From Chthoniobacter flavus (GTDB taxonomy: Bacteria; Verrucomicrobiota; Verrucomicrobiia; Chthoniobacterales; JACTMZ01): a stretch of DNA of 64,000 nucleotides. A program made the translations under genes and the position numbers. Under the pieces are notes generated by a model. That model ran no database searches. It saw nothing but the letters and a program-made list of their open reading frames with translations, and was not told the DNA's origin. Below are positions 13,878 through 35,866 of this stretch, in pieces (position 1 is the first letter of the stretch; each line of letters starts with the position of its first letter). The stretch lies in the NCBI GenBank assembly GCA_945871065.1, contig CAMBUL010000001.1, forward strand, positions 41,666 through 105,665, written 5' to 3'.

Positions 13878-14987
13878 ATGAATTCTTTGTTTCCGCTGTT
13901 CGAACCGTTGCGCGTCGGCGCAACGGAAGTGCCGAATCGTTTGTTCATGGCTCCCCTTACCCGATGCCGGGCTGAAGCGGAGCATGTGCCGGGACAACTT
14001 ATGGCGGAATACTACGCGCAGCGTTCCACGGCGGGACTGATCATTGCCGAGGCGACGATGGCGATGGAGGGAAACTCGGCCTTTTATGCGGAGCCGGGAA
14101 TTTACTCGGCGGCGCAGGTTGCGGGGTGGAAAGCGGTGACCGACGCGGTGCACGGGGCCGGAGGACGAATTTTTTTGCAGATTTGGCATGGGGGACGGGC
14201 GTGTCATCCGTTTTTCAATAATGGGGCACAGCCGGTGGCGCCGAGTGCCCTGGCGATCACTAATGACGAGGTGCACACCCCGGAGGGGAAGAAGCCGTAT
14301 ACTATGCCGCGGGAACTGCGCGATGATGAATTGCCGGGCATTGTGGCTGGTTTCAAAAAGGCGGCGGAGAATGCCAAGGCGGCGGGGTTTGACGGGGTCG
14401 AGGTGCACGGGGCAAACGGGTATTTGCTCGATGAATTTTTGCGCGATGGGTCGAACCAACGGACGGGGGCCTACGGCGGATCAATCGAAAACCGGGCGCG
14501 TTTGTTGCTCGAGGTGATCGAGGCGGTATCTGGGGTGTGGGGCGCGGATCGCGTCGGCCTGCGTGTGTCTCCGCTGAACAGTTTCAACAGCATGAGCGAC
14601 AGCGATCCAATCGGATTGATATCGTGGCTGGGTGCGCAGCTGAACGCCTGCGGCCTGGCTTATTGGCATGTCATGCGGGCGGATTTTCTCGGACAGCAAA
14701 GCGGCGATGTGATGTCGGCCGCGCGGGCAGCCTATAATGGGGTGCTGGTCGGGAATATGGGCTACACACCGCAAGAAGCGGCGGAGGCTATAGCCGAGAA
14801 AAAGCTCGATGCGGTGGCCTTTGGCCAACCGTTCTTGGCTAACCCGGATTTGCCGGCGCGGGTCAAAGCGGGCGCAGCCCTCAACACACCGGATGAAACG
14901 ACGTTCTACTCACCGGGGGCTAAAGGCTATACGGATTATCCGGCGATGAAGGCAGGTTCGTCCTGTGATACCCTGACGAACGGATGA
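13878..14987 (+). CDS. Old Yellow Enzyme family NADH:flavin oxidoreductase (NemA-like)
   Basis: 'LFEPLRVGATEVPNRLFMAPLTRCRA' and 'VEVHGANGYLLDEFL' OYE motifs over the full length. Confidence 0.9.
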   Translation: MNSLFPLFEPLRVGATEVPNRLFMAPLTRCRAEAEHVPGQLMAEYYAQRSTAGLIIAEATMAMEGNSAFYAEPGIYSAAQVAGWKAVTDAVHGAGGRIFLQIWHGGRACHPFFNNGAQPVAPSALAITNDEVHTPEGKKPYTMPRELRDDELPGIVAGFKKAAENAKAAGFDGVEVHGANGYLLDEFLRDGSNQRTGAYGGSIENRARLLLEVIEAVSGVWGADRVGLRVSPLNSFNSMSDSDPIGLISWLGAQLNACGLAYWHVMRADFLGQQSGDVMSAARAAYNGVLVGNMGYTPQEAAEAIAEKKLDAVAFGQPFLANPDLPARVKAGAALNTPDETTFYSPGAKGYTDYPAMKAGSSCDTLTNG

Positions 14988-15988: not shown

Positions 15989-17365
15989 TCAGATGTGGAT
16001 GGCGTGACCGCGGGATTGTTCGGCCGCTTCGTGAATCGATTCGCTGAGTGTAGGATGAGCGTGGATGGTCGAGATGAGTTCCTCGTGGGTCGCTTCCATC
16101 TCGATGGCCAGGCCGAGCTCGGCGATCATTTCGGTGGCGTGGGCACCGAGGATGTGGGCGCCCAGGATTTCTCCGTGCGGTTCGCCGAAAATGATTTTGA
16201 CGAAGCCTTCGCTTTCGCCCACGGCGAGGGCTTTGCCACTGGCCATGAAAGGGAATTTTCCGACTTTGTATTTGAGGCCTTTTTCTTTCGCCGCCCGTTC
16301 GGTCAGCCCGACGCTGGCCACTTGCGGTTCGCAGTAGGTGCAGCCCGGGAAGACATCCACTTTGCGTGGGGATTTGCCGGCGAACATACCTTCTACGGCC
16401 TGGATGGCCTCGAAGCTGGCCACGTGGGCGAGCCAAGGCGGCCCGATGATATCGCCGGCGGCGAAGACACCACGCATCGAAGTTTCGTAGCGGTCGTTGG
16501 TTTGGATCCAGCCCTTCGGATCGAGTTTGACCTTTAGTCCTTCGGGCAGGAGGGGAGCCACCCCGATGGCCACGAGAGCAATGGGCGCTTCGAGCGTTTC
16601 GTTGGCTTTGCCGCTGACCGTGAGTTTGACCCCTTTGTGGGTCGCTTCGGCTTTGTCGACTTTGGTGCCGGTGAGGAAGCGGATACCTTGCTTGGTCAGG
16701 GATTTTTCCAAGGCCACGGAGACATCGGTATCTTCAACCGGGAGAATGTTGGGCAGCATTTCAACCACGGTGACCTTGGTGCCGAAGGCGTTGAAAAAGT
16801 AGGCGAATTCGATGCCGATGGCGCCGGCACCGATGATGATGATTTCTTTCGGTTGCTCGGGCAGGACCATGGCTTGTTTGCTGCCGATGACGCTCTTGCC
16901 GTTAAAGGGGAAGCCGGGCATTTCGCGAGAGACGACGCCGGTGGTGACGAGGATTTTCGATGCGGTATGCGTGACTTTTTTGCCCTCAGCGTCGGTGACT
17001 TCCACCACCCCGGCTTTGGGAATGGCGGCGGTGCCGCGGAGGTAATCGACCTTGTTTTTTTTAAGGAGCATCTCGATACCGCCGGCCAGTTTGTCGACCA
17101 CACCACGGCTGCGGCTAATCACTTTGGTCCAATCGAAGGAAAGCTTTTCGAAGGTCATACCGAACTCGGCGGCATGCTTGGACATCATTTGGTAAAGCTC
17201 CGCGTTGCGGATGAGCGATTTGGTCGGGATACAACCCCAGTTGAGGCAAGTGCCGCCGACACGTTCCAGTTCGACGCAAGCCACCTTTTTGCCGAGTTGC
17301 GCGGCGCGGATTGCGCCGACGTATCCGGCGGGGCCGCCGCCTACCACAATGAGGTCGTATGCCAT
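15989..17365 (-). CDS. lpdA: Dihydrolipoyl dehydrogenase (E3)
   Basis: 'YDLIVVGGGPAGYVGAIRAAQLG', redox disulfide 'GGTCLNWGCIPTK' and C-terminal 'HAHPTLSE'. ATG 17365 chosen. Confidence 0.92.
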   Translation of the reverse strand: MAYDLIVVGGGPAGYVGAIRAAQLGKKVACVELERVGGTCLNWGCIPTKSLIRNAELYQMMSKHAAEFGMTFEKLSFDWTKVISRSRGVVDKLAGGIEMLLKKNKVDYLRGTAAIPKAGVVEVTDAEGKKVTHTASKILVTTGVVSREMPGFPFNGKSVIGSKQAMVLPEQPKEIIIIGAGAIGIEFAYFFNAFGTKVTVVEMLPNILPVEDTDVSVALEKSLTKQGIRFLTGTKVDKAEATHKGVKLTVSGKANETLEAPIALVAIGVAPLLPEGLKVKLDPKGWIQTNDRYETSMRGVFAAGDIIGPPWLAHVASFEAIQAVEGMFAGKSPRKVDVFPGCTYCEPQVASVGLTERAAKEKGLKYKVGKFPFMASGKALAVGESEGFVKIIFGEPHGEILGAHILGAHATEMIAELGLAIEMEATHEELISTIHAHPTLSESIHEAAEQSRGHAIHI

Positions 17366-17423
17366 AAGAACGTGTAACATGCCTGTTTTGGGGAGGGGGA
17401 CTCAAGAAGGAATGGTCCGTAAA

Positions 17424-17460
17424 AGTTTGCAGTGTTCAGTTTTCAGCATTGAGCAAAGAC
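17424..17460 (+). repeat. Heptad-periodic repeat, copy A (TTTGCAG TGTTCAG TTTTCAG CATTGAG CAAAGAC)
   Basis: Read directly. Ends 14 nt before the mutM ATG. 33/37 identical to copy B. Confidence 0.8.
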
Positions 17461-17474
17461 ATTAGGATACCCGG

Positions 17475-18266
17475 ATGCCGGAACTCGCCGAGGTGGCTTT
17501 TTATTCCAAGAAGTGGGCACCCGGGCTCGGGGATCGTGTCACGGAGGTGATTTGCCGGGAGCGGGCCCGGATTTACCGGACGGCGGTGCCGGCGGAAATC
17601 CGGCGCGGACTGCAAGGGAAGAAGCTCACTGGTATCGAGACCAAGGGGAAGCAAATGCGTTTCGTTTTCGAGGAGGCGAGCCTCGGGCTGCATCTCGGGA
17701 TGACGGGCAAACTTCTGGTCAAAGGCCAAGACCATGAACCCGGGCGTCATGACCATCTGGTCATCCGGCAGACCAAGCGTTCGCTCGTTTTCCGCGATGC
17801 GCGGATGTTCGGGGCTCTCAAATTCGATCCGCGTGAGGAACCTAATTGGTGGGTGAAGCTGCCACCGGAGGTCGTCTCGCGGTCGTTTACCTCCAAGGTG
17901 GTGAGTGCCTATTTGCGCCGGCGCAAGGGAAGTCCGCTCAAGGCGGTCCTGCTCCAGCAAGAGCGGTTTCCGGGGGTGGGCAATTGGATGGCGGATGAAA
18001 TCCTCTGGCGTTGCCATTTCCATCCCGGACGCAGGGCGGGAACATTGAGCGAGGAAGAAGCACAAATTTTCTTCCGGAATACGAAGCAACTTTGCCGCGA
18101 TGCGCTGAAAATCATCGGCCCAAACCACGGACGTCCCCCGTCCTCCTGGCTTTTCCGGCACCGTTGGCGGCGCGGCGGGAAGTGTCCGCGGGACGGAGCG
18201 ACGCTCGAGCGGGCGACGATCGGCGGTCGGACCACGGCCTGGTGTGCGCAGTGCCAGCGGATGTGA
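17475..18266 (+). CDS. mutM: Fpg/Nei-family DNA glycosylase (formamidopyrimidine-DNA glycosylase-like)
   Basis: N-terminal 'MPELAEV' (Pro2/Glu3) and C-terminal zinc finger 'CPRDGATLERATIGGRTTAWCAQCQ'. Confidence 0.8.
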   Translation: MPELAEVAFYSKKWAPGLGDRVTEVICRERARIYRTAVPAEIRRGLQGKKLTGIETKGKQMRFVFEEASLGLHLGMTGKLLVKGQDHEPGRHDHLVIRQTKRSLVFRDARMFGALKFDPREEPNWWVKLPPEVVSRSFTSKVVSAYLRRRKGSPLKAVLLQQERFPGVGNWMADEILWRCHFHPGRRAGTLSEEEAQIFFRNTKQLCRDALKIIGPNHGRPPSSWLFRHRWRRGGKCPRDGATLERATIGGRTTAWCAQCQRM

Positions 18267-18283
18267 ACCGCCGCGGAGCCGCG

Positions 18284-18320
18284 AGTTTGCAGTGTTCGGT
18301 CTTCAGTATTCAGCAAAGAC
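18284..18320 (+). repeat. Heptad-periodic repeat, copy B (TTTGCAG TGTTCGG TCTTCAG TATTCAG CAAAGAC)
   Basis: Read directly. Starts 18 nt after the mutM stop and exactly 860 nt from copy A. Confidence 0.8.
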
Positions 18321-18372: not shown

Positions 18373-18792
18373 CTATTCGACGGGGAAGCCTTCGAGGTTG
18401 GCTGCGTCGCGGAGGCGTTGGTCGGCGGTGAGGAAAGGGAGGTGCTGGGGTTGCTCGCGGCAGAAGATGAGGGCGGCGGCGAGTTGGAAGGCGTCGGCGG
18501 CACGGAGCGGATGGACGCGGAGGAGACGGATGGCGCGGGCGCGGACTTCGGTAGTCGGGGTGACTTCGGTCCATTGCTTGGTCATTTCATGCAAGCGCTT
18601 CCGTGCCGCATGTTCGACGTCCGCTGGCAACTGACCATCGCGTTGGCGGCGGACCAGCGAGGACTCGATTTCCGCGAGGGTACCAAACCACACCACGGCC
18701 CAAGGATCCGCGGCGTATTGCTTTCTTCGCAGGTCGGACGATGCCTCGGTGACGATTAGCGGAACCAAAGCCGAGCTGTCCCAGAAATTCAT
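18373..18792 (-). CDS. vapC: PIN-domain toxin (VapC family)
   Basis: PIN acidic positions in 'FWDSSAL', 'LAEIESSL', 'RAADAFQLAAAL' and 'FLTADQRL'. Confidence 0.8.
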   Translation of the reverse strand: MNFWDSSALVPLIVTEASSDLRRKQYAADPWAVVWFGTLAEIESSLVRRQRDGQLPADVEHAARKRLHEMTKQWTEVTPTTEVRARAIRLLRVHPLRAADAFQLAAALIFCREQPQHLPFLTADQRLRDAANLEGFPVE

Positions 18793-19076
18793 CGATCTTC
18801 GCTGCGTTCTTCGAGGATGGCTTCCGTGAGGCGGGCGTTGCTCTTCGGTAGCGGTAAGTCGAGTACAGCGCGCGCATTGGGTTTACATTTTGGCGGAGTG
18901 ACTAGGCCATCCGCGACAAGTGAGCGAACATGTTCATCCATAAGATCTTGCTCCAGTGGATAGACCACAGCGATGGGCTTGCGGTGGTCGGTGATGATCA
19001 GGGGTTCGCCGGCGATGACGGACTTGAGGCGGGCGGAGAGGTTGTTTTTGAGGTCGGAGACGCTAGCGGTCTTCAT
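18789..19076 (-). CDS. Phd/YefM-family antitoxin
   Basis: 'MKTASVSDLKNNLSARLKSVIAGEPLIITDHRKPIAVVYPLE'. ATGA overlap with vapC. Confidence 0.75.
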   Translation of the reverse strand: MKTASVSDLKNNLSARLKSVIAGEPLIITDHRKPIAVVYPLEQDLMDEHVRSLVADGLVTPPKCKPNARAVLDLPLPKSNARLTEAILEERSEDR

Positions 19077-19150: not shown

Positions 19151-19723
19151 CTATCGGGCAAAGACGGAATGGCGCTCGTTTTCCGTCAGTTCGCGCCACT
19201 GGCCCGCAGCGAGGTTTGGGGGGAGATGGAACTGACCGATGGCGACGCGGAGGAGTCGGAGGGTCGGGAAGCCGGCGGCGGCAGTCATTTTGCGGACTTG
19301 GCGGTTGCGGCCTTCGCGCAGGGTGAGTTCGATCCAGCTGGTTGGGATGTTCAGACGATGGCGGATGGGTGGATCGCGTGGAGTGAGGTCGGGGTGGATG
19401 GGTGCCACCTCGGCGGGGCGGGTCATGGTTCCTTCGAGGACGATGCCGCGGTGCAGTTTTTGTAGCGCTTCCTCAGTCACCGCCCCTTCCACTTGTGCCT
19501 GGTAAGTGCGGGGGTGGGCGTTTTTCGGGTCGAGGAGTTTGGTGTTAAGTCCGGCTTCGTCGGAGAGGAGAAGAAGGCCTTCGCTGTCGCGATCGAGGCG
19601 TCCGAGCGGGTAAACATTTTCCGGCAACCCGAATTCGGACAGGGTGCGCTGTTCAGGATGGTCCGGCGTGAACTGTGAGAGGACGCCGTAGGGTTTGTTC
19701 AGCGCCAGGAGCACAGTGGACAA
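19151..19723 (-). CDS. rluE: RsuA/RluE-family rRNA pseudouridine synthase (RluE-like, no S4 domain)
   Basis: 'LNKPYGVLSQF' and catalytic 'GRLDRDSEGLLLLSDE'. 190 aa. Confidence 0.75.
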   Translation of the reverse strand: MSTVLLALNKPYGVLSQFTPDHPEQRTLSEFGLPENVYPLGRLDRDSEGLLLLSDEAGLNTKLLDPKNAHPRTYQAQVEGAVTEEALQKLHRGIVLEGTMTRPAEVAPIHPDLTPRDPPIRHRLNIPTSWIELTLREGRNRQVRKMTAAAGFPTLRLLRVAIGQFHLPPNLAAGQWRELTENERHSVFAR

Positions 19724-19819
19724 TCTTCAGTTTTGGCTAGGGCCCGTTTGCCTGAGCGCTATCTACGGTTCGCAGACTCGGTTCCACCGGAAAGATCGAA
19801 CCGAAGCGGATGTCGAAGG

Positions 19820-21064
19820 TCAGAGCAGAAGGAGCGCGGGTTTTTCAACGAGACGTCGGAGGGCATTCATGTATTCCGCCGCGACGGCGCCGTCGACCAC
19901 GCGGTGATCGCCGCTTCCGGAAATGACGAGGCGGTGACCGACCACGAGTTGATCCTGCTCGTTGACCACCGGCTGTTTGATGATGGCGCCGATGCCGAGG
20001 ATGAAGGATTGCGGTGGGTTGATGATGGGCAGGAAGCTGTCGATGCCGTAGCCACCGAGGCTGGAGAGCGTGATTGTTCCGCCCTGGTATTCCTCGGGCT
20101 TGAGTTTTTTGCCGCGGGCTTTGGCCGCGAGCTCCTTCATTTGCGCGCTGATTTCGCGCAGGGTGAGGGTATTGGCTTTTTTGATCACCGGAGTGATTAG
20201 TCCGTCTTCGATCGCCACAGCCACCGCGAGATTCACCTCGGCGTATTCGATGATGGCATCGCCATCGTAAGCCGCGTTGATTTTCGGCACTTCGGCTGCA
20301 GCGCGGGCGGCGGCCAGGAGAATGAAGTCGTTGACCGTTAGTTTTTGTCCCCCGTCCTTTTCTGCCATGGCATTGAGTTCCTTGCGCAGGACCATGAGCG
20401 GTCCGGCGTCCATCGTCACGCTGAGATAGAAATGCGGGATTTGTGTTTTGCTGGCGAGGAGGCGCTCGGCGATGGTTTTGCGCATGCCGGTCAGGGCGAT
20501 GATTTTTTCTTCCCCAGCGATGCCGTGGGCGGCACGAATGGAGGGTGTGGCCGGAGATGCCACTCCCCCACCCCCACCGGCTGGCGCATTTTCGACGTCC
20601 TTCTTGACGATGCGTCCGCCGGGGCCGGTGCCGGCGATAGAGGAAAGATTGACCCCGCGGGTGGCGGCGATTTTGCGGGCGAGAGGAGAGGCTTTGGTCC
20701 GTCCAGTCGTGGCCGGTGCAGCGGCGCGGGGTGCGAGAGCAAGGGGAGTCGTGGCCGCGGGCGCAGAGGTTTTCGGTTTTTCAGCAATCGGAGTGGATTG
20801 CGCTGCGGGGGCGGTGTCGGCCGTTTCGCCGTCGGCGAGGATGAGAGCAATTTTGTCACCGACTTTAATAGTGCCCCCCTCTGCGACGTAAAGTTCGCTC
20901 AATGTTCCTTCGTCGAAGGCCTCCATTTCCATGGTGGCTTTGTCCGTCTCGACTTCGGCCAGAATGTCGCCGACTTCAACCTTGTCACCTTTGTTTTTGA
21001 CCCATTTGACGAGAGTGCCCTCGACCATGGTGTCGCTGAGTTTGGGCATGGTGACGATGGGCAT
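19820..21064 (-). CDS. pdhC: Pyruvate dehydrogenase E2, dihydrolipoamide acetyltransferase
   Basis: Lipoyl 'AEVETDKATMEMEAF', E3-binding 'ASPLARKIAATRGVNLSSIAGTGPGGRIVKKDV' and catalytic 'DHRVVDGA'. Confidence 0.9.
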   Translation of the reverse strand: MPIVTMPKLSDTMVEGTLVKWVKNKGDKVEVGDILAEVETDKATMEMEAFDEGTLSELYVAEGGTIKVGDKIALILADGETADTAPAAQSTPIAEKPKTSAPAATTPLALAPRAAAPATTGRTKASPLARKIAATRGVNLSSIAGTGPGGRIVKKDVENAPAGGGGGVASPATPSIRAAHGIAGEEKIIALTGMRKTIAERLLASKTQIPHFYLSVTMDAGPLMVLRKELNAMAEKDGGQKLTVNDFILLAAARAAAEVPKINAAYDGDAIIEYAEVNLAVAVAIEDGLITPVIKKANTLTLREISAQMKELAAKARGKKLKPEEYQGGTITLSSLGGYGIDSFLPIINPPQSFILGIGAIIKQPVVNEQDQLVVGHRLVISGSGDHRVVDGAVAAEYMNALRRLVEKPALLLL

Positions 21065-21073
21065 GGTGGGAAG

Positions 21074-21115
21074 TGATGAGTGAAAAGTGACGAGTGACGA
21101 GTGACGAGTGGAATG
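21074..21115 (+). repeat. Six tandem heptads TGATGAG TGAAAAG TGACGAG TGACGAG TGACGAG TGGAATG in the pdhB-pdhC spacer
   Basis: Read directly. On the pdh mRNA the tract ends 9 nt upstream of the pdhC AUG. Confidence 0.85.
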
Positions 21116-21139
21116 TCGGCGCGGGCGGGGACCCGCGGA

Positions 21140-22114
21140 TCAGGAGATGGCGAGGACTTTTTGGATGATGCGGTCGGCGGTGGGGAGCTGCAGCGCTTCG
21201 AGCGGGGGGCTGTAGATGGCGGGGGCATCGAGGGAGCAGACACGCTGGACTGGGGCGTCGAGGTCGTCGAAGGCGCGTTCCTGGATCATACTGGCGATCT
21301 GCGCGGAGACGCCGCAGAAGGGTTTGTTTTCGTCGACCAGGACGGCGCGGTGGGTTTTTCGCACGCTGGCCAGGACGGTTTCTTCGTCCAATGGACGGAT
21401 ACTGCGGAGGTCGACGACCTCGGCTGAAATATTGAATTCCTCGTGCAGGCGGTGGGCGGCGGCGAGAGCGGTGAGCACAGCGCGTCCGTGGGCGATAAGG
21501 GAGACGTCGGTGCCTTCCCGTTTGACGTCGGCCACGCCGATGGGGATGAGGTATTCGCCTTCGGGTACTTCACCTTGGTCGCCGTAGAGGAGGGTGTTTT
21601 CCATGACGCAGACCGGATCGTTGTCGCGGATGGCCGATTTCATCAGGCCCTTGGCGTCATAAGGCGTGGCGGGTGAGACGACTTTTAGGCCCGGGGTGTT
21701 GGCCAGGAAATTTTCTGGAGTGTGCGAATGGGTGGCACCGACATTGGTGCCCCCGTTGGCCGGGCCGCGGATGACGAGGGGGCAGTTGATTAGTCCGCCG
21801 GACATGTAGCGCACGCAACCGGCGTTGTTGATGATCTGGTCGTAGGCCACGTAGGCAAAGCTCCAGAACATGAGTTCCATCACCGGACGCATGCCCATCA
21901 TGGCAGCTCCCACTCCGAGGCCGATGAAGCCGGCCTCGCTGATCGGGGTGTCTATGACACGCTTGCCACCGAAGCGTTTCCAGAGACCATCGGTGATTTT
22001 GTAGGCGCCGTTGTATTCGGCGACTTCCTCTCCCATGACAACGACGTTTTCGTCACGCTCGAGTTCTTCGGCTAGTGCGTCGTTGAGGGCTTGGCGGTAG
22101 GTGATGACGGGCAC
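21140..22114 (-). CDS. pdhB: Pyruvate dehydrogenase E1 beta subunit
   Basis: 'ITYRQALNDALAEELERDENVVVMGEEVAEYNGAYKIT' and full-length transketolase-like similarity. GTG start. Confidence 0.92.
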   Translation of the reverse strand: MPVITYRQALNDALAEELERDENVVVMGEEVAEYNGAYKITDGLWKRFGGKRVIDTPISEAGFIGLGVGAAMMGMRPVMELMFWSFAYVAYDQIINNAGCVRYMSGGLINCPLVIRGPANGGTNVGATHSHTPENFLANTPGLKVVSPATPYDAKGLMKSAIRDNDPVCVMENTLLYGDQGEVPEGEYLIPIGVADVKREGTDVSLIAHGRAVLTALAAAHRLHEEFNISAEVVDLRSIRPLDEETVLASVRKTHRAVLVDENKPFCGVSAQIASMIQERAFDDLDAPVQRVCSLDAPAIYSPPLEALQLPTADRIIQKVLAIS

Positions 22115-22125
22115 GGCGGAGAAAA

Positions 22126-22160
22126 GTAAGAAGTGGGAAAGATGAAGGAAGAAGTGCAGG
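22126..22160 (+). repeat. Five purine-rich heptads GTAAGAA GTGGGAA AGATGAA GGAAGAA GTGCAGG in the pdhA-pdhB spacer
   Basis: Read directly. 7-nt periodicity, degenerate. Confidence 0.6.
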
Positions 22161-22165
22161 CGGCT

Positions 22166-23347
22166 TCAGTCGTTGAAGAAGTGACGGCCGGTTTGGCCGG
22201 ACTCGGTCCCCATATCGACTTCATAATAAATGTCGCTGAAGATGTCTTCCACTTCGGGGAACGGGCTGTCTTCGGCGAATTGCACAGCGGCCGCGGCTTC
22301 TTTCTTGGCGGCCTCGTCGATTTTTTTTAGCCCGGCGTCGTCGAGGATCCCCTCCTCTTTCAGGCGGTTTTCCCACAGCGTGATGGGGTCGTGGTTCTGC
22401 TTGTAGAACTCGATCTCTTCCGGCTTGCGGTATTTCTTCGCGTTGGCGTCGGCCACGGAATGTCCGTAGTAGCGGTAGGTGTCGATTTCGAGGACGGTGG
22501 GCCGGCACTTTTCGTGGGCGCGCTCGATGGCGTCCCAAGTTTTGGCCCGGACTTCATAGAGGTCCTCACCATTGACGATGTCCCAATCGATGTTGTAGCC
22601 CTCGGCGCGTTCGGCCAGACAGGATTTGCTCGCGGAGGAACGGGCTAGGCTGGTGCCCATGGAATACTGGTTGTTTTCGATGATGTAGACCACCGGGATG
22701 TCCCAGAGCGAAGCGAGGTTGAGGGACTCGTGGTAGACGCCTTGGTTGACTGCACCATCGCCGAGGTAGGTGAGGCAACAACCCTTGAGGCCCTGGTATT
22801 TGAGGGCGTAGGCAATGCCGAGGCCAAGCGGGGTTTGTCCGGCCACAATTCCGTGGCCGCCCCAGAAATTTTTATCCGGCGCGAAAAAGTGCATCGAGCC
22901 CCCCTTCCCTTTCGAACATCCGGTGGCTTTGCCGAGAAGTTCGGCCATGCACTCGTTCATTGACATGCCGACCACGAGGGCGTGGCCGTGGTCGCGGTAG
23001 GCGGTGATGGCGTGGTCGTTCTCGCCCATCAGCGCGAGGGTGCCGACGGCGACCGATTCTTGTCCGATGTAAAGATGGAGAAAACCGCCCATTTTCCCTT
23101 GCTGGTAAAGCTTGAGGGAGGCCTGCTCGAAGCGTCGGATGCGGAGCATATCGGCGAGGAAGCCGAGCTTTTGCTCCTTGGTCAGGTCGGCGTTGATTGC
23201 GGCCGTGGCGTAGTCGACCGGGTTGCGACCGGTTTTTTTGGGCTTTTCGGCTCGGGTAACACTCACGTTGGGATATCGGGTTCGGTTGGTTACGGGTAGC
23301 GGTCTGACCGCAGATGCGAAGGGCGGAGGGCACCTTGGCAAGAACAA
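22166..23347 (-). CDS. pdhA: Pyruvate dehydrogenase E1 alpha subunit
   Basis: TPP motif 'YLGDGAVNQGVYHESLNLASLWDIPVVYIIENNQYSMGT'. The first ~30-40 codons are uncertain, and a later GTG start is possible. Confidence 0.9.
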   Translation of the reverse strand: MFLPRCPPPFASAVRPLPVTNRTRYPNVSVTRAEKPKKTGRNPVDYATAAINADLTKEQKLGFLADMLRIRRFEQASLKLYQQGKMGGFLHLYIGQESVAVGTLALMGENDHAITAYRDHGHALVVGMSMNECMAELLGKATGCSKGKGGSMHFFAPDKNFWGGHGIVAGQTPLGLGIAYALKYQGLKGCCLTYLGDGAVNQGVYHESLNLASLWDIPVVYIIENNQYSMGTSLARSSASKSCLAERAEGYNIDWDIVNGEDLYEVRAKTWDAIERAHEKCRPTVLEIDTYRYYGHSVADANAKKYRKPEEIEFYKQNHDPITLWENRLKEEGILDDAGLKKIDEAAKKEAAAAVQFAEDSPFPEVEDIFSDIYYEVDMGTESGQTGRHFFND

Positions 23348-30953: not shown

Positions 30954-31370
30954 TTAGGCGACCAGTGAATCCGCGCGGATGATTTGCAAGCGCGCGTGGC
31001 GGTCGTTCCAGCCGGTGATTTGACGGTCGGCGGTGATCAAGGGCACGCCGAGGACGAGCGCCGTCGCGACGATGAGGCGGTCGGCGGGGTCGCCGTGGAA
31101 ATCTTGTAAACGACAGCTTTCGAGGCTGATCTCGGGATGGAGCGGTTCGAGGCGGACCGGAGGTTGGAGATTTTCGCGGATCCACCGGTCCACATCGGGC
31201 TTCAATTCGAGGCGGCCTTTGGAGGCCAGCATGGCCACCTCCCAGACGGAAATCGCCGGGACAATCGAGGTGCCGCGGAAATTTCGCAAGGCCCCGAGTT
31301 GCGGGTCACCCGCGGACGCGCGCAGCCAGATGTGCGTGTCGAAAACGGCCGCAGCGGTCTTCTCAAGCAT
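30954..31370 (-). CDS. vapC: PIN-domain toxin (VapC family)
   Basis: 'AVFDTHIW', 'SVWEVAML', 'DPADRLIVATAL' and 'LITADRQI' PIN motifs. ATG 31370 ('MLEKTAAAVFD') chosen. Confidence 0.75.
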   Translation of the reverse strand: MLEKTAAAVFDTHIWLRASAGDPQLGALRNFRGTSIVPAISVWEVAMLASKGRLELKPDVDRWIRENLQPPVRLEPLHPEISLESCRLQDFHGDPADRLIVATALVLGVPLITADRQITGWNDRHARLQIIRADSLVA

Positions 31371-31587
31371 CGGCTTGCCAAGTTTCGCCCGTGGCGAGGG
31401 CATCGTCGTGCAGGGTCATGGTGCCGGACGCCCGTCCGAAAAAAAGGGGCGCGGGTGCCTTCTCGACCGCGACCAATTCAACGGCCGGTTGTCCGTGACG
31501 ACTGACCACGATGGAGCACTTCTCGCGTTGCACCTTCTCGATCAGGCTGAGGCACTTGGCTTTGAATTGGGTGACGGTCACCTGCAT
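31363..31587 (-). CDS. Phd/YefM-type antitoxin
   Basis: 'MQVTVTQFKAKCLSLIEKVQREKCSIVVSRHGQPAVELV'. 8-nt overlap with the toxin start. Confidence 0.65.
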   Translation of the reverse strand: MQVTVTQFKAKCLSLIEKVQREKCSIVVSRHGQPAVELVAVEKAPAPLFFGRASGTMTLHDDALATGETWQADA

Positions 31588-31590
31588 AAA

Positions 31591-31616: not shown

Positions 31617-31632
31617 TGTCAATCGTATGACA
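31617..31632. promoter_or_regulatory. Inverted repeat TGTCA-atcgta-TGACA in the TA / dinB-dnaE2 divergent region
   Basis: Read directly. Perfect 5-bp arms. Confidence 0.35.
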
Positions 31633-31644
31633 GACTAAAACTAG

Positions 31645-31658
31645 TGAACATTTGAACA
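31645..31658. promoter_or_regulatory. Direct repeat TGAACA-tt-TGAACA about 40 nt upstream of the dinB-dnaE2 start
   Basis: Read directly. It contains GAACA half-sites but not a palindromic arrangement. Confidence 0.3.
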
Positions 31659-31696
31659 GTAGTCAGGTTTCGTGCTAAATCTGTGGGGTGAAGCGG

Positions 31697-32860
31697 ATGG
31701 AACAGCGGGCGGCGGTCCATTTGGATGCGGATGCCTTTTTTGTCGGATGCGAGGTGGCGTCCGAGCCCCGCTTGCGCGGGAAGGCGGTTGCGGTGGGGGG
31801 GATGAAGCGGGGGATTATTGCTTCGGCCAGTTATGAGGCGCGCAAGCTGGGGGTTTACACCCCGATGCCGACGGCGCGGGCCTTGAAGATTTGTCCGTAC
31901 CTCATCGTGCTGCCGGGGGATTATGAGAAGTATGAACATTTTTCGCGGCTGATGTTTTCCTTGGTCCACGATTACACACCGGTCGTGGAGGTGGGGTCGA
32001 TCGACGAGGGCTACGGGGATTTGTCGGGGGTGACAAAATGGAGTCCGCGCACGGCGGCGGAGCGCTTGCGGCGCAATATCCGCGAGCATTTGCGTTTGTC
32101 GGTCTCGCAGGGGCTGGGGACGAACAAGCTGATCTCGGCCGTGGCTTCGAAGTTGCGCAAGCCGGATAATTTTCTCGAGGTGCCGGCGGGGACGGAGCGG
32201 GAATTTCTCGCGCCGCTCGAGGTGAAATGGCTGCCGGGGGTGGGGGCGAAGATGGAGGGCATATTCCAAGCGGCGGGTTTGCACCGCATCGCGCAAGTGG
32301 CGGAGACGACGGTGGAGAGTTTGGAATTGATCGCGGGCTCGGGGGCGGGGCGGTTGCGGCAATTTGCCCAGGGCATCGACGAGCGTCCGATCGTGACCGA
32401 GCGTGAAGATGCCCAGTCTTACGGGAAGCAGGAGACGTTCGACGAGGACACGACGGATGAAGAATTTGTGCGGCGCGTGCTGCGCGGGATGGCGGATCAT
32501 TTGATGGCCAAGGTGCGGTCCGACGGGAAGATGACCCGGTGTGTCGAGGTGCGGTTGCGTTACAATGACATGGAGCAAAGCCGGCGGAGCGAGAGCCTCG
32601 AGGAGCCAACGGATTTGGAGACGGACGTTTACGGGGTGATCGATCGGCTGGTGCGGCGGGCCTGGGACCGGCGGGTCAGTTTGCGTTTGGTCGGGTTGAA
32701 ATTGTCGCGGGTTTATGACGGCGGCGGGTGGCGTCAGACGGGGCTGGATTTGCCGGGCACGGGCTATGAGCGGGAGACGCGGCGGGTCTTGGCGCGGGTC
32801 ATGGATGAGGCGCGGGTGAAATACGGCGCCGGGAGTGTGGTCAGGGGGCATCAGATTAAA
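31697..32860 (+). other. dinB: DinB (Pol IV) module of the fused ORF
   Basis: Catalytic Asp/Asp/Glu retained ('DADAFF', 'SIDEGY'). The usual C-terminal tail '...VKYGAGSVVRG' ends here. Confidence 0.8.
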
Positions 32861-35800
32861 AGTGTTCAGTGTTCCGTTGGCCGTGTTCAGAAAGAGGCTG
32901 GGACGAGCGGCTCGCTTATCCGTGCGGTGAAGAGCGGACACGTGGGCCGCGTGTCCCTTCCTGCCCTAAATGTGAAAAGTTGCTTTAGCTTTATGGATTC
33001 GTTGCTCCGGCCGGGGGACATTGTGCGGATGGCGGGGGAGCGGGGGATGAAGGCGGTGGCGATGACCGATCCGAATTTGCACGGGGCGGTGGAGTTTTGT
33101 GCCGCGGCGAAGGAAGCGGGGATCCAGCCGATCGTGGGGGCGGAGGTGAAGGTGGGGGGGATGAGGTATTTGGCCTATGTCGAGAATGCCGCGGGTTACC
33201 GGCATTTGTGCGGTCTGCTCAGTGGGACGAATAAGGATGTGCTGGAGGGATTGATCCTGCGGCCGGTCACGGCGTTTCCGGAGGTGCGGTATGCGGCGAC
33301 GCGGGAGGCGAAATTTTATGAGGTCGTGCAGAGTATCCGGACTTTGTCCTTGGCGGGGCAGATGCAGGGGGGAAAGCGGCGGGGGGATTTTTCGTGGGGG
33401 CGGGAGATGAAGGCGTCGCCGGGGATGATGCGAGATGCGGAGGAGATGGCCGAACGGTGCGAGTTTGTCTTGCCGATCGGCGGATTGAAGTTTCCGCGGT
33501 TTGCCCCGCCGGATGGATCTTTGCCGCGGGAGTTTTTAGCTCGGTTGGCCCGCGAGGGAATGAAGTGGCGTTACGGGGCGGCGCCGTCCGACGGGGTGCG
33601 GCGTCAGGTGGAAGAGGAATTGCGCATCATCGGCGAGGTGGGCTATGAGGAATATTTTCTGGTCGTCTGGGATTTGCTCCAGCTTTGCCGGGAGCGCGGG
33701 ATTGAATGGATCACGCGGGGCAGCGCGGCGGATTCGCTGGTCTGTTATTGCCTTGGGATCAGCACGGTGTGTCCGGTGCGGTTTGAATTGTATTTCCGGC
33801 GCTTTCTCAATCCGGAACGGATGAAGCTGCAGAAGTTGCCGGATATCGACCTTGATTTTCCCCATGACCGGCGGGACGAGGTGGTGGATATTATCTTTGC
33901 CCGATACGGGCCTCACCATGCGGCCGTGGTGGGGGGATTCAACACGTACCAAGGTCGTTCCGCTTTTGCCGATATCGCCAAAGCGCTGGGGGTTTCCGAA
34001 CTCCAGATCCGGCGCATGACGGAAAAATTGCCGCACACTTCGGCTCATGATGTGGCCGAGGTGGCACGGGACGGGGTGGAATCGGGTGGTTTGGGGTGGG
34101 AGGAGAATCCTTACCGGGCGGCGCTAAAGTTGGCGGCGCGGCTCGACGGGTTCCCGCGGCATGCCAAGATGCATCCCTGCGGTGTGGTTATTTCACGCGA
34201 ACCGGTGGGGGAATTGACACCGTTGTTCACCAGCGCAAGCGGGCGATTGACCACGCAATTCGAGATGGAAGCGGTCGAGGCGATGGGGTTGGTCAAGCTC
34301 GATATTCTTGCGCAGGGCGGGCTTTCTGTGCTTCGCGACGCGCGTGCGGCATTACGCGCCCGCGGATTCGATCCGCCGGAGCCCGGGGCATGGGATGATC
34401 CGCAGGTGTGGCGGATGATTGCCGAGGGCGAGGCCCGCGGGGCGCATCATATCGAGAGTCCGGCTATGACATCTTTGGCCCGGAGGTCCGGGGTCCGGGC
34501 CATCGACCAGTTGATCGCTATTGTCTCAGTCATCCGTCCGGGCGCGGCTAACAGCCTGCGCAAGGAACAGTTCGCGCGGCGCGCGCGCGGCGAGGAGCCG
34601 GTGACCTATATCCATCCGAGCTTGGAACAGGTCTTGCGTTCGACCTATGGCGTGGTCGCTTACGAAGAGCATGTGCTGCAAATTTGCGAGGTGTTCGCCG
34701 GATGGGATGCGGGGCGGGCGGACCAATTGCGGCGCTTGCTGGTGAAAAACCGGATGGCGCAGGTGGATTCGTGGCGCGAAGAATTCGCCGCGGCCGCGCG
34801 GGTTGCTGGGCGCGCGGAAGACGAGATTGCGGACGTGTGGGACTTGCTCATGAAGTTCCGCGGGTATGCCTTTTGCCGGGCTCATTCGACCGCTTACGGT
34901 TTGGAGGCTTACGAAGCGGCGCAGTTGAAACGGTATTGGCCGGCGGAATTTCTGGCCTCCGTGCTGACCCACGGGAAGGGATTTTACTCCCGGTTGTTTT
35001 ATACGATCGAGGCGCGGCGGCTGGGGGTTTTGTTCGGGAGGCCGGATATCAACGGGGAGACAACGAAGTTTTCCGTTGGCCGTGTTCGGTGTCCAGTGAG
35101 CCGGAGAAAAACTGCCGAAGGCGCGGCGGGTGGGAGAATTCAAGTGCCATTGGGTATGATCAAGGGATTGTCGGAAGGATTGTTGCGGAGAATCGGGGAA
35201 AGACGGCCCTTTGTTTCATTGGCGGATTTTTGGCGGCGTTGCGCGCCGCAGGCGGATGAAGCGTCGGCTTTATTGAGGGTGGGGGCGTTTGACGCGTTCG
35301 GGCCATCGCGCACGGAGATGTTTTGGGAATTGCGTGCCTTGGCGCCCTGCGTGACGGGACAAGGTCTGCTTTTGGAGGCGCGGGGTGCGGTGTTGCCGGA
35401 CTGCAGGACGGAGCCGGGACGGCTGGAAAAGTTGCGCGATGAAATGGAACTGCTTGGCTTTCCGGTCAATGGACATCCGGTGGAGCTTTGGCCGGAGGTG
35501 GGATGGGAGACCTATTGTCCGGTCGGCGAGGTGCGGAAGTTTGCGGGTCAACGGGTCACGACGTGCGGGTTGGTTGTGGCGCAGCGGTTGCACCGTCAGT
35601 CGGACGGGCGCACCATGAAATTCATCAGCATTTGCGACCGCACCGATATCATCGAGTGCGAGATTTTCGCGGAGGTTTACCGCCGCTGCGGCGGCGTGCT
35701 GGCCCGGTGGCCGGTGGTCGAGGTGACGGGGAAGGTGGAGACCCCGGGCGGACGCGGTGGCGTGCTGCGGGTGGAGGAAGTGCGGCGGGCGCGGGAGCTT

Positions 35801-35866
35801 ACGAAGCCGGACGTTCGTCGTAGGGCATCTCGGCCAGCTGGAATTTCGGCACCGATTGGCGGATGA
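31697..35866 (+). CDS. Single ORF encoding a Pol IV (DinB)-like Y-family polymerase fused to a DnaE2/ImuC-type C-family polymerase
   Basis: 1,392 codons with no stop from GTG 31688 (ATG 31697 is an alternative start). N-terminal module has 'HLDADAFF...SIDEGYGDLSG'. From 'LPALNVKSCFSFMDSLLRPGDIVRMAGERGMKAVAMTDPNLHGAVEF' onward it is DnaE-like (PHP, palm/fingers 'LPDIDLDFPHDRRDEVV', HhH 'GMIKGLSEG', OB). Confidence 0.8.
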   Translation: MEQRAAVHLDADAFFVGCEVASEPRLRGKAVAVGGMKRGIIASASYEARKLGVYTPMPTARALKICPYLIVLPGDYEKYEHFSRLMFSLVHDYTPVVEVGSIDEGYGDLSGVTKWSPRTAAERLRRNIREHLRLSVSQGLGTNKLISAVASKLRKPDNFLEVPAGTEREFLAPLEVKWLPGVGAKMEGIFQAAGLHRIAQVAETTVESLELIAGSGAGRLRQFAQGIDERPIVTEREDAQSYGKQETFDEDTTDEEFVRRVLRGMADHLMAKVRSDGKMTRCVEVRLRYNDMEQSRRSESLEEPTDLETDVYGVIDRLVRRAWDRRVSLRLVGLKLSRVYDGGGWRQTGLDLPGTGYERETRRVLARVMDEARVKYGAGSVVRGHQIKSVQCSVGRVQKEAGTSGSLIRAVKSGHVGRVSLPALNVKSCFSFMDSLLRPGDIVRMAGERGMKAVAMTDPNLHGAVEFCAAAKEAGIQPIVGAEVKVGGMRYLAYVENAAGYRHLCGLLSGTNKDVLEGLILRPVTAFPEVRYAATREAKFYEVVQSIRTLSLAGQMQGGKRRGDFSWGREMKASPGMMRDAEEMAERCEFVLPIGGLKFPRFAPPDGSLPREFLARLAREGMKWRYGAAPSDGVRRQVEEELRIIGEVGYEEYFLVVWDLLQLCRERGIEWITRGSAADSLVCYCLGISTVCPVRFELYFRRFLNPERMKLQKLPDIDLDFPHDRRDEVVDIIFARYGPHHAAVVGGFNTYQGRSAFADIAKALGVSELQIRRMTEKLPHTSAHDVAEVARDGVESGGLGWEENPYRAALKLAARLDGFPRHAKMHPCGVVISREPVGELTPLFTSASGRLTTQFEMEAVEAMGLVKLDILAQGGLSVLRDARAALRARGFDPPEPGAWDDPQVWRMIAEGEARGAHHIESPAMTSLARRSGVRAIDQLIAIVSVIRPGAANSLRKEQFARRARGEEPVTYIHPSLEQVLRSTYGVVAYEEHVLQICEVFAGWDAGRADQLRRLLVKNRMAQVDSWREEFAAAARVAGRAEDEIADVWDLLMKFRGYAFCRAHSTAYGLEAYEAAQLKRYWPAEFLASVLTHGKGFYSRLFYTIEARRLGVLFGRPDINGETTKFSVGRVRCPVSRRKTAEGAAGGRIQVPLGMIKGLSEGLLRRIGERRPFVSLADFWRRCAPQADEASALLRVGAFDAFGPSRTEMFWELRALAPCVTGQGLLLEARGAVLPDCRTEPGRLEKLRDEMELLGFPVNGHPVELWPEVGWETYCPVGEVRKFAGQRVTTCGLVVAQRLHRQSDGRTMKFISICDRTDIIECEIFAEVYRRCGGVLARWPVVEVTGKVETPGGRGGVLRVEEVRRARELTKPDVRRRASRPAGISAPIGG
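32863..32897 (+). repeat. Heptad-periodic repeat, copy C (TGTTCAG TGTTCCG TTGGCCG TGTTCAG AAAGAGG), in frame at the DinB/DnaE2 junction
   Basis: Read directly. Translated as 'VQCSVGRVQKE'. Confidence 0.8.
32927..35866 (+). other. dnaE2: DnaE2/ImuC module of the fused ORF (in-frame GTG codons at 32927, 32942 and 32951 could act as internal starts)
   Basis: Degenerate PHP N-terminus with C-family polymerase motifs through the OB-fold. About 970 aa. Confidence 0.75.
35069..35110 (+). repeat. Heptad-periodic repeat, copy D (TTTTCCG TTGGCCG TGTTCGG TGTCCAG TGAGCCG GAGAAAA), in frame inside the DnaE2 module
   Basis: Read directly. 35069-35089 is 19/21 identical to 32870-32890. Translated as 'FSVGRVRCPVSRRK'. 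Confidence 0.8.

Follow-up and report, generated by a model that had tools for sequence, protein, structure and literature searches.

Heptad repeats of an intergenic-type family are translated in frame at two sites of a DinB-DnaE2 polymerase fusion in Chthoniobacterales

A DinB-DnaE2 fusion gene (31688..35866, + strand) lies in the window studied here, that is the whole 64,000-nt stretch that was analysed from a freshwater Chthoniobacter flavus assembly (GCA_945871065.1, contig CAMBUL010000001.1). As established from the translation of its open reading frame (ORF), Pfam and clusters of homologues, the gene joins a DNA polymerase IV (Pol IV) and a DnaE2-like polymerase III alpha subunit in a single chain of 1392 amino acids (aa). 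At two places, the linker between the two modules and a loop inside the DnaE2 module, it carries in-frame tracts of a 7-nt repeat belonging to a mainly non-coding family. The explanation that we consider probable, with real room for doubt, is that a dispersed heptad family resides secondarily, in frame, at two permissive sites of a pre-existing fusion. An earlier note on the same DNA had instead taken the linker for a former dinB-dnaE2 spacer that came to be read through; this origin is not borne out, as the fusion is found across the phylum, whereas a single clade of Chthoniobacterales has the tract.

The linker extends between His388 (32849) and Leu427 (32966). Its tract (32861..32890, + strand, in the orientation called reverse below) was recovered by autocorrelation, by a skeleton scan and by matching of a 37-nt element. 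It is composed of four units, AGTGTTC AGTGTTC CGTTGGC CGTGTTC AG, with the skeleton AGTnnTC, is stop-free in all frames in this orientation and encodes the peptide SVQCSVGRVQ. The rest of the linker (32891..32965, + strand) consists of the A-rich AAAGAGG followed by two hairpin blocks, a degenerate one at 32901-32921 and one with a 10-bp stem at 32936-32956. The earlier note had placed the module boundaries at about 32850 and 32955, and these are right because Pol IV profiles reach aa 390, at about 32857, and the PHP domain starts at aa 427, at 32966. The heptads are also present as it had claimed, but only the first 30 nt or so are heptads, the remainder of the approximately 105 nt being hairpins and A-rich sequence rather than repeat throughout. 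In-frame read-through of repeat DNA is nevertheless confirmed, the linker holding a mainly non-coding repeat family that is translated.

The linker is predicted to be disordered, a point that the note had suggested checking: an AlphaFold2 model of aa 240-560, based on a 34-sequence alignment, gives a predicted local distance difference test score of about 30 and no secondary structure at aa 384-438. The linker peptide is also hypervariable among relatives, in which hairpin blocks are either present or absent and decay in L001 and L002. The RNA structure of the query linker is weakly non-random (z = -1.7), no further copies of its hairpins are found in the window, and Rfam retrieves from the window one tRNA and nothing at the tracts. 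The note had also left open that a stand-alone DnaE2 is made from in-frame GTG codons at 32927, 32942 and 32951. These codons sit in a hairpin block missing from many relatives, and a comparison of the relatives' linkers reveals neither a conserved Shine-Dalgarno sequence, the A-rich AAAGAGG not qualifying as one, nor a conserved start codon for such an internal start. The tract is not in the leader orientation. Separate initiation of DnaE2 finds no support in these observations but may occur.

The same repeat was sought across the window. A blind scan for autocorrelation at lag 7 retrieves 17419-17460, 18283-18319, 21066-21120 and the linker tract itself (32861-32888), together with one further coding match, at 14525, which was deemed to be due to chance. 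The skeleton (AGTNNNC)x4, when at least 14 of its 16 positions are required, is matched in the window at 17424, 18284 and 32861 only, and never in 200 dinucleotide shuffles nor at periods 5, 6 and 8-11. When the window and 15 close relatives are scanned, 37 matches are obtained at period 7 and none at periods 5, 6, 8, 9 or 10, all 37 on the fusion gene's sense strand. The 37-nt elements at 17424 and 18284 are identical at 33 of 37 positions, and their best non-self matches on both strands of the window (24/37, against a mean of 9 and a standard deviation of 2.6) are the two in-gene tracts, at 32861 and 35074. The linker repeat thus belongs, as the note had proposed, to the family found at 17424 and 18284.

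These intergenic copies are indeed non-coding. The first (17424..17460, - strand) lies between the divergent genes lpd (-) and fpg (+), 43 nt from the ATG of lpd, for which it is forward-oriented, with an ACT skeleton. The second (18284..18320, - strand) is not the leader of a + strand gene, as it is placed where fpg (+) and vapC (-) converge, and the earlier description of the copies as leaders and spacers has to be amended on this point. The tract that the note had placed at 21074-21115 belongs to a module (21072..21139, - strand) between the E1beta and E2 genes of pyruvate dehydrogenase (PDH), in which the mRNA successively carries a stop codon, a hairpin (about 21118-21139), (ACTCGTC)n heptads and, 7 nt on, an ATG. 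It is of a different unit class: 21072-21110 reads (AGTGACG)n and shares with the linker tract its period and AGT phase, but not its sequence, so that membership of the same family holds in part only. Orthologous E1beta-E2 tracts are found at L002:2505, L008:1684 and L012:2683. All intergenic copies in the window have the orientation of minus-strand leaders: read on that strand, ACT-skeleton heptads precede E1beta, E2 and lpd.

A second in-frame tract, which had escaped the earlier note, is located in the fingers-HhH (helix-hairpin-helix) loop of the DnaE2 module, hereafter loop 2 (35067..35101, + strand). Its units are AGTTTTC CGTTGGC CGTGTTC GGTGTCC AGTGAGC and its peptide is (K)FSVGRVRCPVS, at a place where distant fusions and basal members of the clade have just F-x-P-E-x-G-IRVPL. 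As this site was never intergenic, an in-frame tract there cannot be an old spacer. The linker and loop-2 tracts have in common a derived 17-mer, TTCCGTTGGCCGTGTTC, which is found nowhere else in the window and, among the fetched loci, in L001 and L002 only; this points to sequence exchange between the two tracts. An insert of about 30 nt (..CTGTCTCGNCAANCCTCGGC..) is likewise found within the loop-2 tract of L080 and within the linker tract of L203-L208. In L003 (12909-13150), the loop-2 insert is tandemly duplicated, over 210 nt and in frame.

The gene that harbours the tracts is much more widespread than they are. Judging from sequence comparison, a fusion of a catalytically intact DinB with a DnaE2-like polymerase is conserved across Verrucomicrobiota. 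The DinB module (31688..32857, + strand) is defined by NCBIfam Pol IV profiles, whose alignments end at aa 390, by Pfam IMS (aa 12-155) and IMS_C (aa 243-351), and by the catalytic D-x-D, E and SIDE motifs that its translation retains. The DnaE2-like module (32966..35863, + strand; Pfam and NCBIfam) starts with PHP (aa 427-517), followed by DNA_pol3_alpha, finger, HHH_6 and OB, without a tau-binding tail. With NCBIfam, it scores 544 bits as DnaE versus 482 as error-prone polymerase, both under the curated cut-offs. Its PHP N-terminus (32966-32980) reads LNVKS instead of the H-x-H-x-HS of DnaE, the N-terminal histidine metal ligands being lost, and a clamp-binding-like QTGLDL (aa 354-359, 32747-32764) lies inside the fusion about 35 aa upstream of the linker. 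The closest loci come from lake metagenome-assembled genomes labelled Chthoniobacterales, Chthoniobacter or Verrucomicrobia. More than 110 clusters of full-length homologous fusions are found at identities down to 52%, and Methylacidimicrobium and other Verrucomicrobiota also possess fused ORFs, of 1472-1693 codons, with 38-42% identity across the junction. No mention of a DinB-DnaE2 fusion was found in the surveys of bacterial polymerases PMC3919608 and PMC12926913.

The AGT-type tract is a feature of the whole clade of the query (at least 69% identity) and is confined to it. Fusions of the 52-58% clade have as linker a basic segment of 30-40 aa, conserved within subclades and without heptads (for instance GHDLWLKQ..KPRAD.ER..VRDYVPLN or GHDLFLQ.YG...EWAALN). 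Two distant fusions depart from this: the linker of L017 contains (AGTCCAC)5, purine heptads and an inverted (GTGGACT)6, and that of L019 contains palindromes resembling repetitive extragenic palindromic (REP) elements. Linkers have thus acquired repeats on more than one occasion.

In the query clade, the tracts vary in a way that does not follow the codons. The skeleton positions AGT..TC, compared over 13 orthologous linkers, have a mean pairwise identity of 0.88, which is also 0.88 at third codon positions; in the flanks, codon positions 1, 2 and 3 have identities of 0.86, 0.88 and 0.64, and heptad positions 4-5 fall to 0.32-0.40. Within the linker tract, amino acids vary and a third-position C or T is fixed, which indicates a constraint that is 7-periodic and does not bear on the peptide. 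Very close relatives have identical tracts or differ at inner positions only, and hairpin 2 decays in them. In L008, P0005, P0007, P0030 and P0046, purine heptads (GGATGAA..) take the place of the AGT-type units at the corresponding point of the linker, and the unit class of the E1beta leader also switches between relatives. Clusters at 90% identity contain mosaic linker alleles, of which some have an 81-nt hairpin block and others lack it, and the variants of the linker assort independently of those of loop 2.

Length changes are equally diverse. In-frame deletions of 21 nt (7 aa, three units) are found in P0024, P0042 and P0062, and a 6-nt deletion in part of cluster 2; a 14-nt deletion in the linker tract splits the fusion in L080, and the loss of 7 nt from the loop-2 tract ends the protein prematurely, at 1216-1219 aa. 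L204/L205 and L206-L208, which come from different samples, have no substitution over 4386 nt and differ by one 7-nt indel in loop 2, which recurs in L203 on a recombinant background. Tracts have 3-4 units, of which at most three are identical, and those of the window are degenerate. Several of these observations, the shared 17-mer and the switches of unit class among them, favour turnover over selection.

The family extends well beyond this gene. A search of metagenome contigs for exact matches to three K-type units (GAAMACT in the forward orientation, AGTKTTC in the reverse one) retrieves at least 120 stretches, in very different GC backgrounds; the counts that follow refer to the 137 tracts among the matches listed. 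No long ORF spans 127 of them, and 10 are spanned by one. The start of a long ORF is found within 17 nt of 16/76 forward tracts versus 4/78 reverse ones, and within 80 nt of 33/76 versus 16/78. An inverted partner lies within 150 nt of 43 of the 137 tracts, which are thereby capable of forming hairpins. Read from its sequence, the reverse complement GAACACT gives TGA in every frame. In the query's lineage, and widely in metagenomes, the family is thus mainly intergenic or intercistronic, typically just upstream of starts, in the orientation opposite to that of the linker tract.

A few copies are nonetheless translated. A freshwater metagenome UvrA (L098, 504-3749, - strand) contains an in-frame heptad tract with its inverted partner (QCSVFSVQSG..., aa 526-535), and in-frame copies occur in proteins of L099 and L137 that, from reading of the translation alone, end in an apparent C-terminal sorting motif of the type IX secretion system (T9SS). 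One repeat family thus appears to be met in frame in several unrelated proteins, namely the fusion gene at two sites, UvrA and the apparently T9SS-sorted proteins. In the L098 UvrA, another heptad-like insertion, SVQSSVISSQ, is situated between the interaction domain and the DNA-binding domain.

Several explanations other than secondary residence were weighed. The tract could be a nucleic-acid element selected within the coding sequence, either a binding site for a leader factor or a slippage-prone, phase-variable switch, and we regard this as possible but on the unlikely side. It would account for the 7-periodic conservation in the 13 orthologues while adjoining hairpins decay, for the retention of four units in nearly all relatives, for the frameshift alleles of independent samples that differ in unit number alone (L204/L205 versus L206-L208), for the exact 14 nt by which L080 is short, and for the reading frame past the frameshift, which is still intact in L203-L205. 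However, the tracts are short and imperfect, with two identical adjacent units in the linker of the window and none in loop 2, and a single frameshift allele per site possibly represents one spreading mutation instead of reversible switching. The linker tract is in the non-leader orientation, its unit class can be swapped and the tract itself lost (P0019, P0033) with the gene being kept, and the sharing of TTCCGTTGGCCGTGTTC explains conservation by conversion, no function being needed. The more specific version, in which linker units would uncouple DinB from DnaE2 and loop-2 units would truncate DnaE2, is to our mind doubtful. Were it true, a lake population would contain sub-lineages of differing translesion or mutator capacity, and the same type of element would serve elsewhere as a translation leader. 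Chance resemblance, or selection of the peptide S-x-Q-x-S-V as a linker motif, is hardly credible: the tract is short and linkers rich in Ser, Gln and Val are common, but the observed skeleton score is reached in none of the 200 shuffles and at no control period, and third-position nucleotides are fixed while amino acids vary.

Two further explanations make the linker an old gene boundary. That it is a fossil dinB-dnaE2 intercistronic spacer, read through after loss of a stop codon, would fit its construction from intergenic-type repeats and hairpins, its hypervariability and disorder, and the heptads, of another class, in the linker of L017; we nevertheless hold it to be very improbable. The fusion is phylum-wide with plain linkers in most lineages, and the same family lies within an internal DnaE2 loop. 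Moreover, a true same-strand spacer (21140->21064) has a hairpin, ACT-heptads and then the ATG, whereas the linker has AGT-heptads and then hairpins, so that its tract is in the non-leader orientation, and both orientation and module order are reversed. The note had suggested looking in related loci for a stop codon after the DinB part and a separate dnaE2 start; no relatives with separate genes and a homologous spacer were found, all being fused down to 38% identity except L080. In this sole split relative, the dnaE2 start is called at the GTG of LNVKS, and comparison with L012 and L007 reveals a single gap in the linker tract, of exactly 14 nt or two heptads. Given this deletion and the nesting of L080 in the fused clade, the split is derived and not ancestral. 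The short DnaE2-only proteins P0131 and P0162 were rejected as natural splits, their scaffolds having 100-N gaps at the linker, as were the short forms P0059, P0060 and P0062, for which the short length of the contigs makes truncation at a contig end the probable cause. Scaffolds L201 and L202 have 100-N gaps exactly at or beside the linker; strain heterogeneity or hairpins there appear to break assemblies and to give rise to false calls of a stand-alone DnaE2. Since the heptads in all likelihood arrived after the fusion, the tract would not be a relic of the old gene boundary. Alternatively, a leader-type module might have split the gene in the query clade, with dnaE2 starting from the GTG at LNVKS, before read-through was restored. 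The split state of L080, viable enough to be assembled and with precisely this start, would agree with such a detour, and so would L004, in which the last heptad pairs with an ACTGAAT overlapping the Leu-Asn codons. The detour is very improbable all the same, for the degenerate 'forward arm' of L005-type linkers (ACTCAC ACTCAA ACTCAA) had to be rejected, with a period of 6 and a non-significant fold z of -0.3, stop codons occur there in no relative, and the loop-2 copy shows that direct in-frame acquisition occurs.

Under the secondary residence that we favour, a heptad copy (AGTnnTC, reverse complement GAnnACT) would have entered an existing, disordered DinB-DnaE2 linker, and a sister copy a surface loop of the DnaE2 module. 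Both would persist because their orientation has no stops in any frame and because the protein tolerates extra residues. Palindromic hairpin mini-elements would have accumulated beside the tracts, which would be passengers translated as flexible spacer. Their pattern might be kept by slippage, by ectopic conversion among copies and by an open-frame filter rather than by selection on the peptide. The first copies may have arrived by template switching, by conversion from a copy elsewhere or by insertion in the manner of a miniature inverted-repeat transposable element (MITE).

Some observations weigh against this scenario. Neither an insertion mechanism, nor a target-site duplication, nor terminal repeats, nor a link to a transposase was found in the copies examined. 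The 7-nt-periodic conservation could reflect selection on a nucleic-acid element; it is explained here by turnover, and neutrality is inferred only. Given the heptads of L017, the tract could conceivably be old, with turnover of its unit class. Finally, the basis for assuming a single origin of the fusion is not a phylogeny but the sharing of junction motifs and similarity over the full length.

Other readings of the tract were tried and set aside. TGTTC is the LexA half-site of Verrucomicrobia (PMC4951493), and an array of such half-sites was considered; TGTTC is not conserved in orthologous tracts, those of L007 and L012 having CGTC and TGTC units, and the palindromic LexA box is not enriched in the window. 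An antisense gene led by the tract was also considered, as an ORF of 440 codons (31619..32941, - strand) has an ATG at 32851, 10 nt past the tract in its forward reading. This ORF is spurious, because it is interrupted at 33-234 codons in most relatives. A composite of GGAATGT and a hairpin that would join 21072 to the linkers is not conserved in orthologous PDH spacers.

Upstream of the fusion gene, a candidate damage-responsive operator, TAGTGAACATTTGAACAGTA, is present at 31641-31660, about 28 nt before the GTG start (31688). The form TACTGAACATTTGAACAGTA is shared without change by 11/11 relatives examined, including those with other upstream genes, and a -10-like box, TGCTAAAT, follows it. 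The shape of the operator, CTG-N10-CAG, is that of an E. coli-type SOS box and not that of the published Verrucomicrobia TGTTC-N4-GAACA. Directly upstream of the gene (30954-31590) are two small minus-strand ORFs; in the relative L201, genes called as PIN and PhdYeFM stand at this position, and the 149-aa ORF of the window has no NCBIfam match.

The intergenic copies are distributed along a minus-strand string composed of PDH E1alpha (22166-23347), E1beta (21140-22114) and E2 (19820-21064), a phd/vapC pair and lpd (15989-17380). Weaker tracts occur in it, with purine heptads, pyrimidine-rich on the mRNA, between E1alpha and E1beta (22120..22157, - strand; orthologues L001:3643 and L002:3551) and a degenerate tract in the spacer after E2 (19708..19735, - strand), which resembles L008:357-398. 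The PDH spacers (21064-21140 and 22115-22165) have pyrimidine-rich heptads just before the starts and no evident Shine-Dalgarno sequence, and their orthologues retain a heptad tract with a changed unit class. The fpg gene (17475-18266, + strand) is inserted within this string, on the opposite strand, and is flanked by the direct 37-nt copies at 17424 and 18284; the arrangement looks as though its insertion had duplicated the lpd leader. In 18373-19076, an antitoxin gene of the phd family (NCBIfam) adjoins a 139-aa gene read as a PIN/VapC toxin, the latter having no NCBIfam match.

These observations imply that tandem repeats of intergenic type can reside in an enzyme of an essential class wherever its fold permits. 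They extend heptamer 'leader' repeats to Verrucomicrobiota, with several unit classes before PDH cistrons devoid of an evident Shine-Dalgarno sequence. A coding segment conserved at a period of 7 nt and not 3 nt also calls for caution in selection analyses and in the use of gene callers. Finally, frameshift alleles of an error-prone polymerase fusion arise naturally from the tracts, be it as a liability or as a switch.

Tandem 7-nt intergenic repeats are also represented by the cyanobacterial STRR (short tandemly repeated repetitive) heptamers CCCCAGT and CAACAGT, which fit the AGTnnnC phase with other units and in other hosts. The closest known system is provided by the TAACTGA heptamer direct repeats, mostly intergenic, of Beggiatoaceae, Cyanobacteria and Bacteroidetes (MacGregor, 2015; PMC4679880), which in the forward orientation lie before starts and have stops in all frames, and in the reverse orientation are open and lie inside ORFs. 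The repeats described here resemble them in consisting of tandem 7-nt units built around ACTGA or ACT, in indels occurring by 7-nt steps, in the position of one orientation just upstream of starts, often with no evident Shine-Dalgarno sequence, and in the behaviour of the K-type units, as forward GAAMACT has stops in all frames and the reverse is open and found in ORFs. They differ by their units, GAA(A/C)ACT (GAACACT and GAAAACT, with 5-6/7 matches to TAACTGA and only the ACT(G)A core in common with it) and also ACTCGTC, with variable inner bases, by their host, Verrucomicrobiota not being listed in PMC4679880, and by in-ORF copies that lie in a defined enzyme, are conserved in a clade and are polymorphic in unit number. 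In both cases, the function in translation is a proposal.

Rickettsia palindromic elements and intragenic MITE/REP sequences (PMC10969869) are likewise dispersed short repeats that have entered unrelated housekeeping genes in frame, at fold-tolerant sites, and are translated as additional peptide, and the palindromic mini-elements of the linker, such as the 27-bp perfect stem of L004, recall them. However, the former are palindromes of about 150 bp and the heptad tract is a tandem repeat, for which neither terminal inverted repeats nor target-site duplications are seen here and mobility is putative. As in contingency loci subject to slipped-strand mispairing, the unit is not a multiple of 3, lies in an ORF and gives unit-number alleles that shift the frame, but the tracts described here have 3-4 imperfect units, and no evidence was found that switching is reversible or that an on/off phenotype is selected. 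The fusion itself is reminiscent of the ImuA-ImuB-DnaE2 (ImuC) mutasome, in which a Y-family fold also stands beside a DnaE2-type polymerase, and it shares with it an upstream candidate damage-responsive operator. In contrast to that system, no adjacent imuA is seen here, and the Y-family part has its catalytic residues intact, scores as Pol IV and is covalently fused to its partner.

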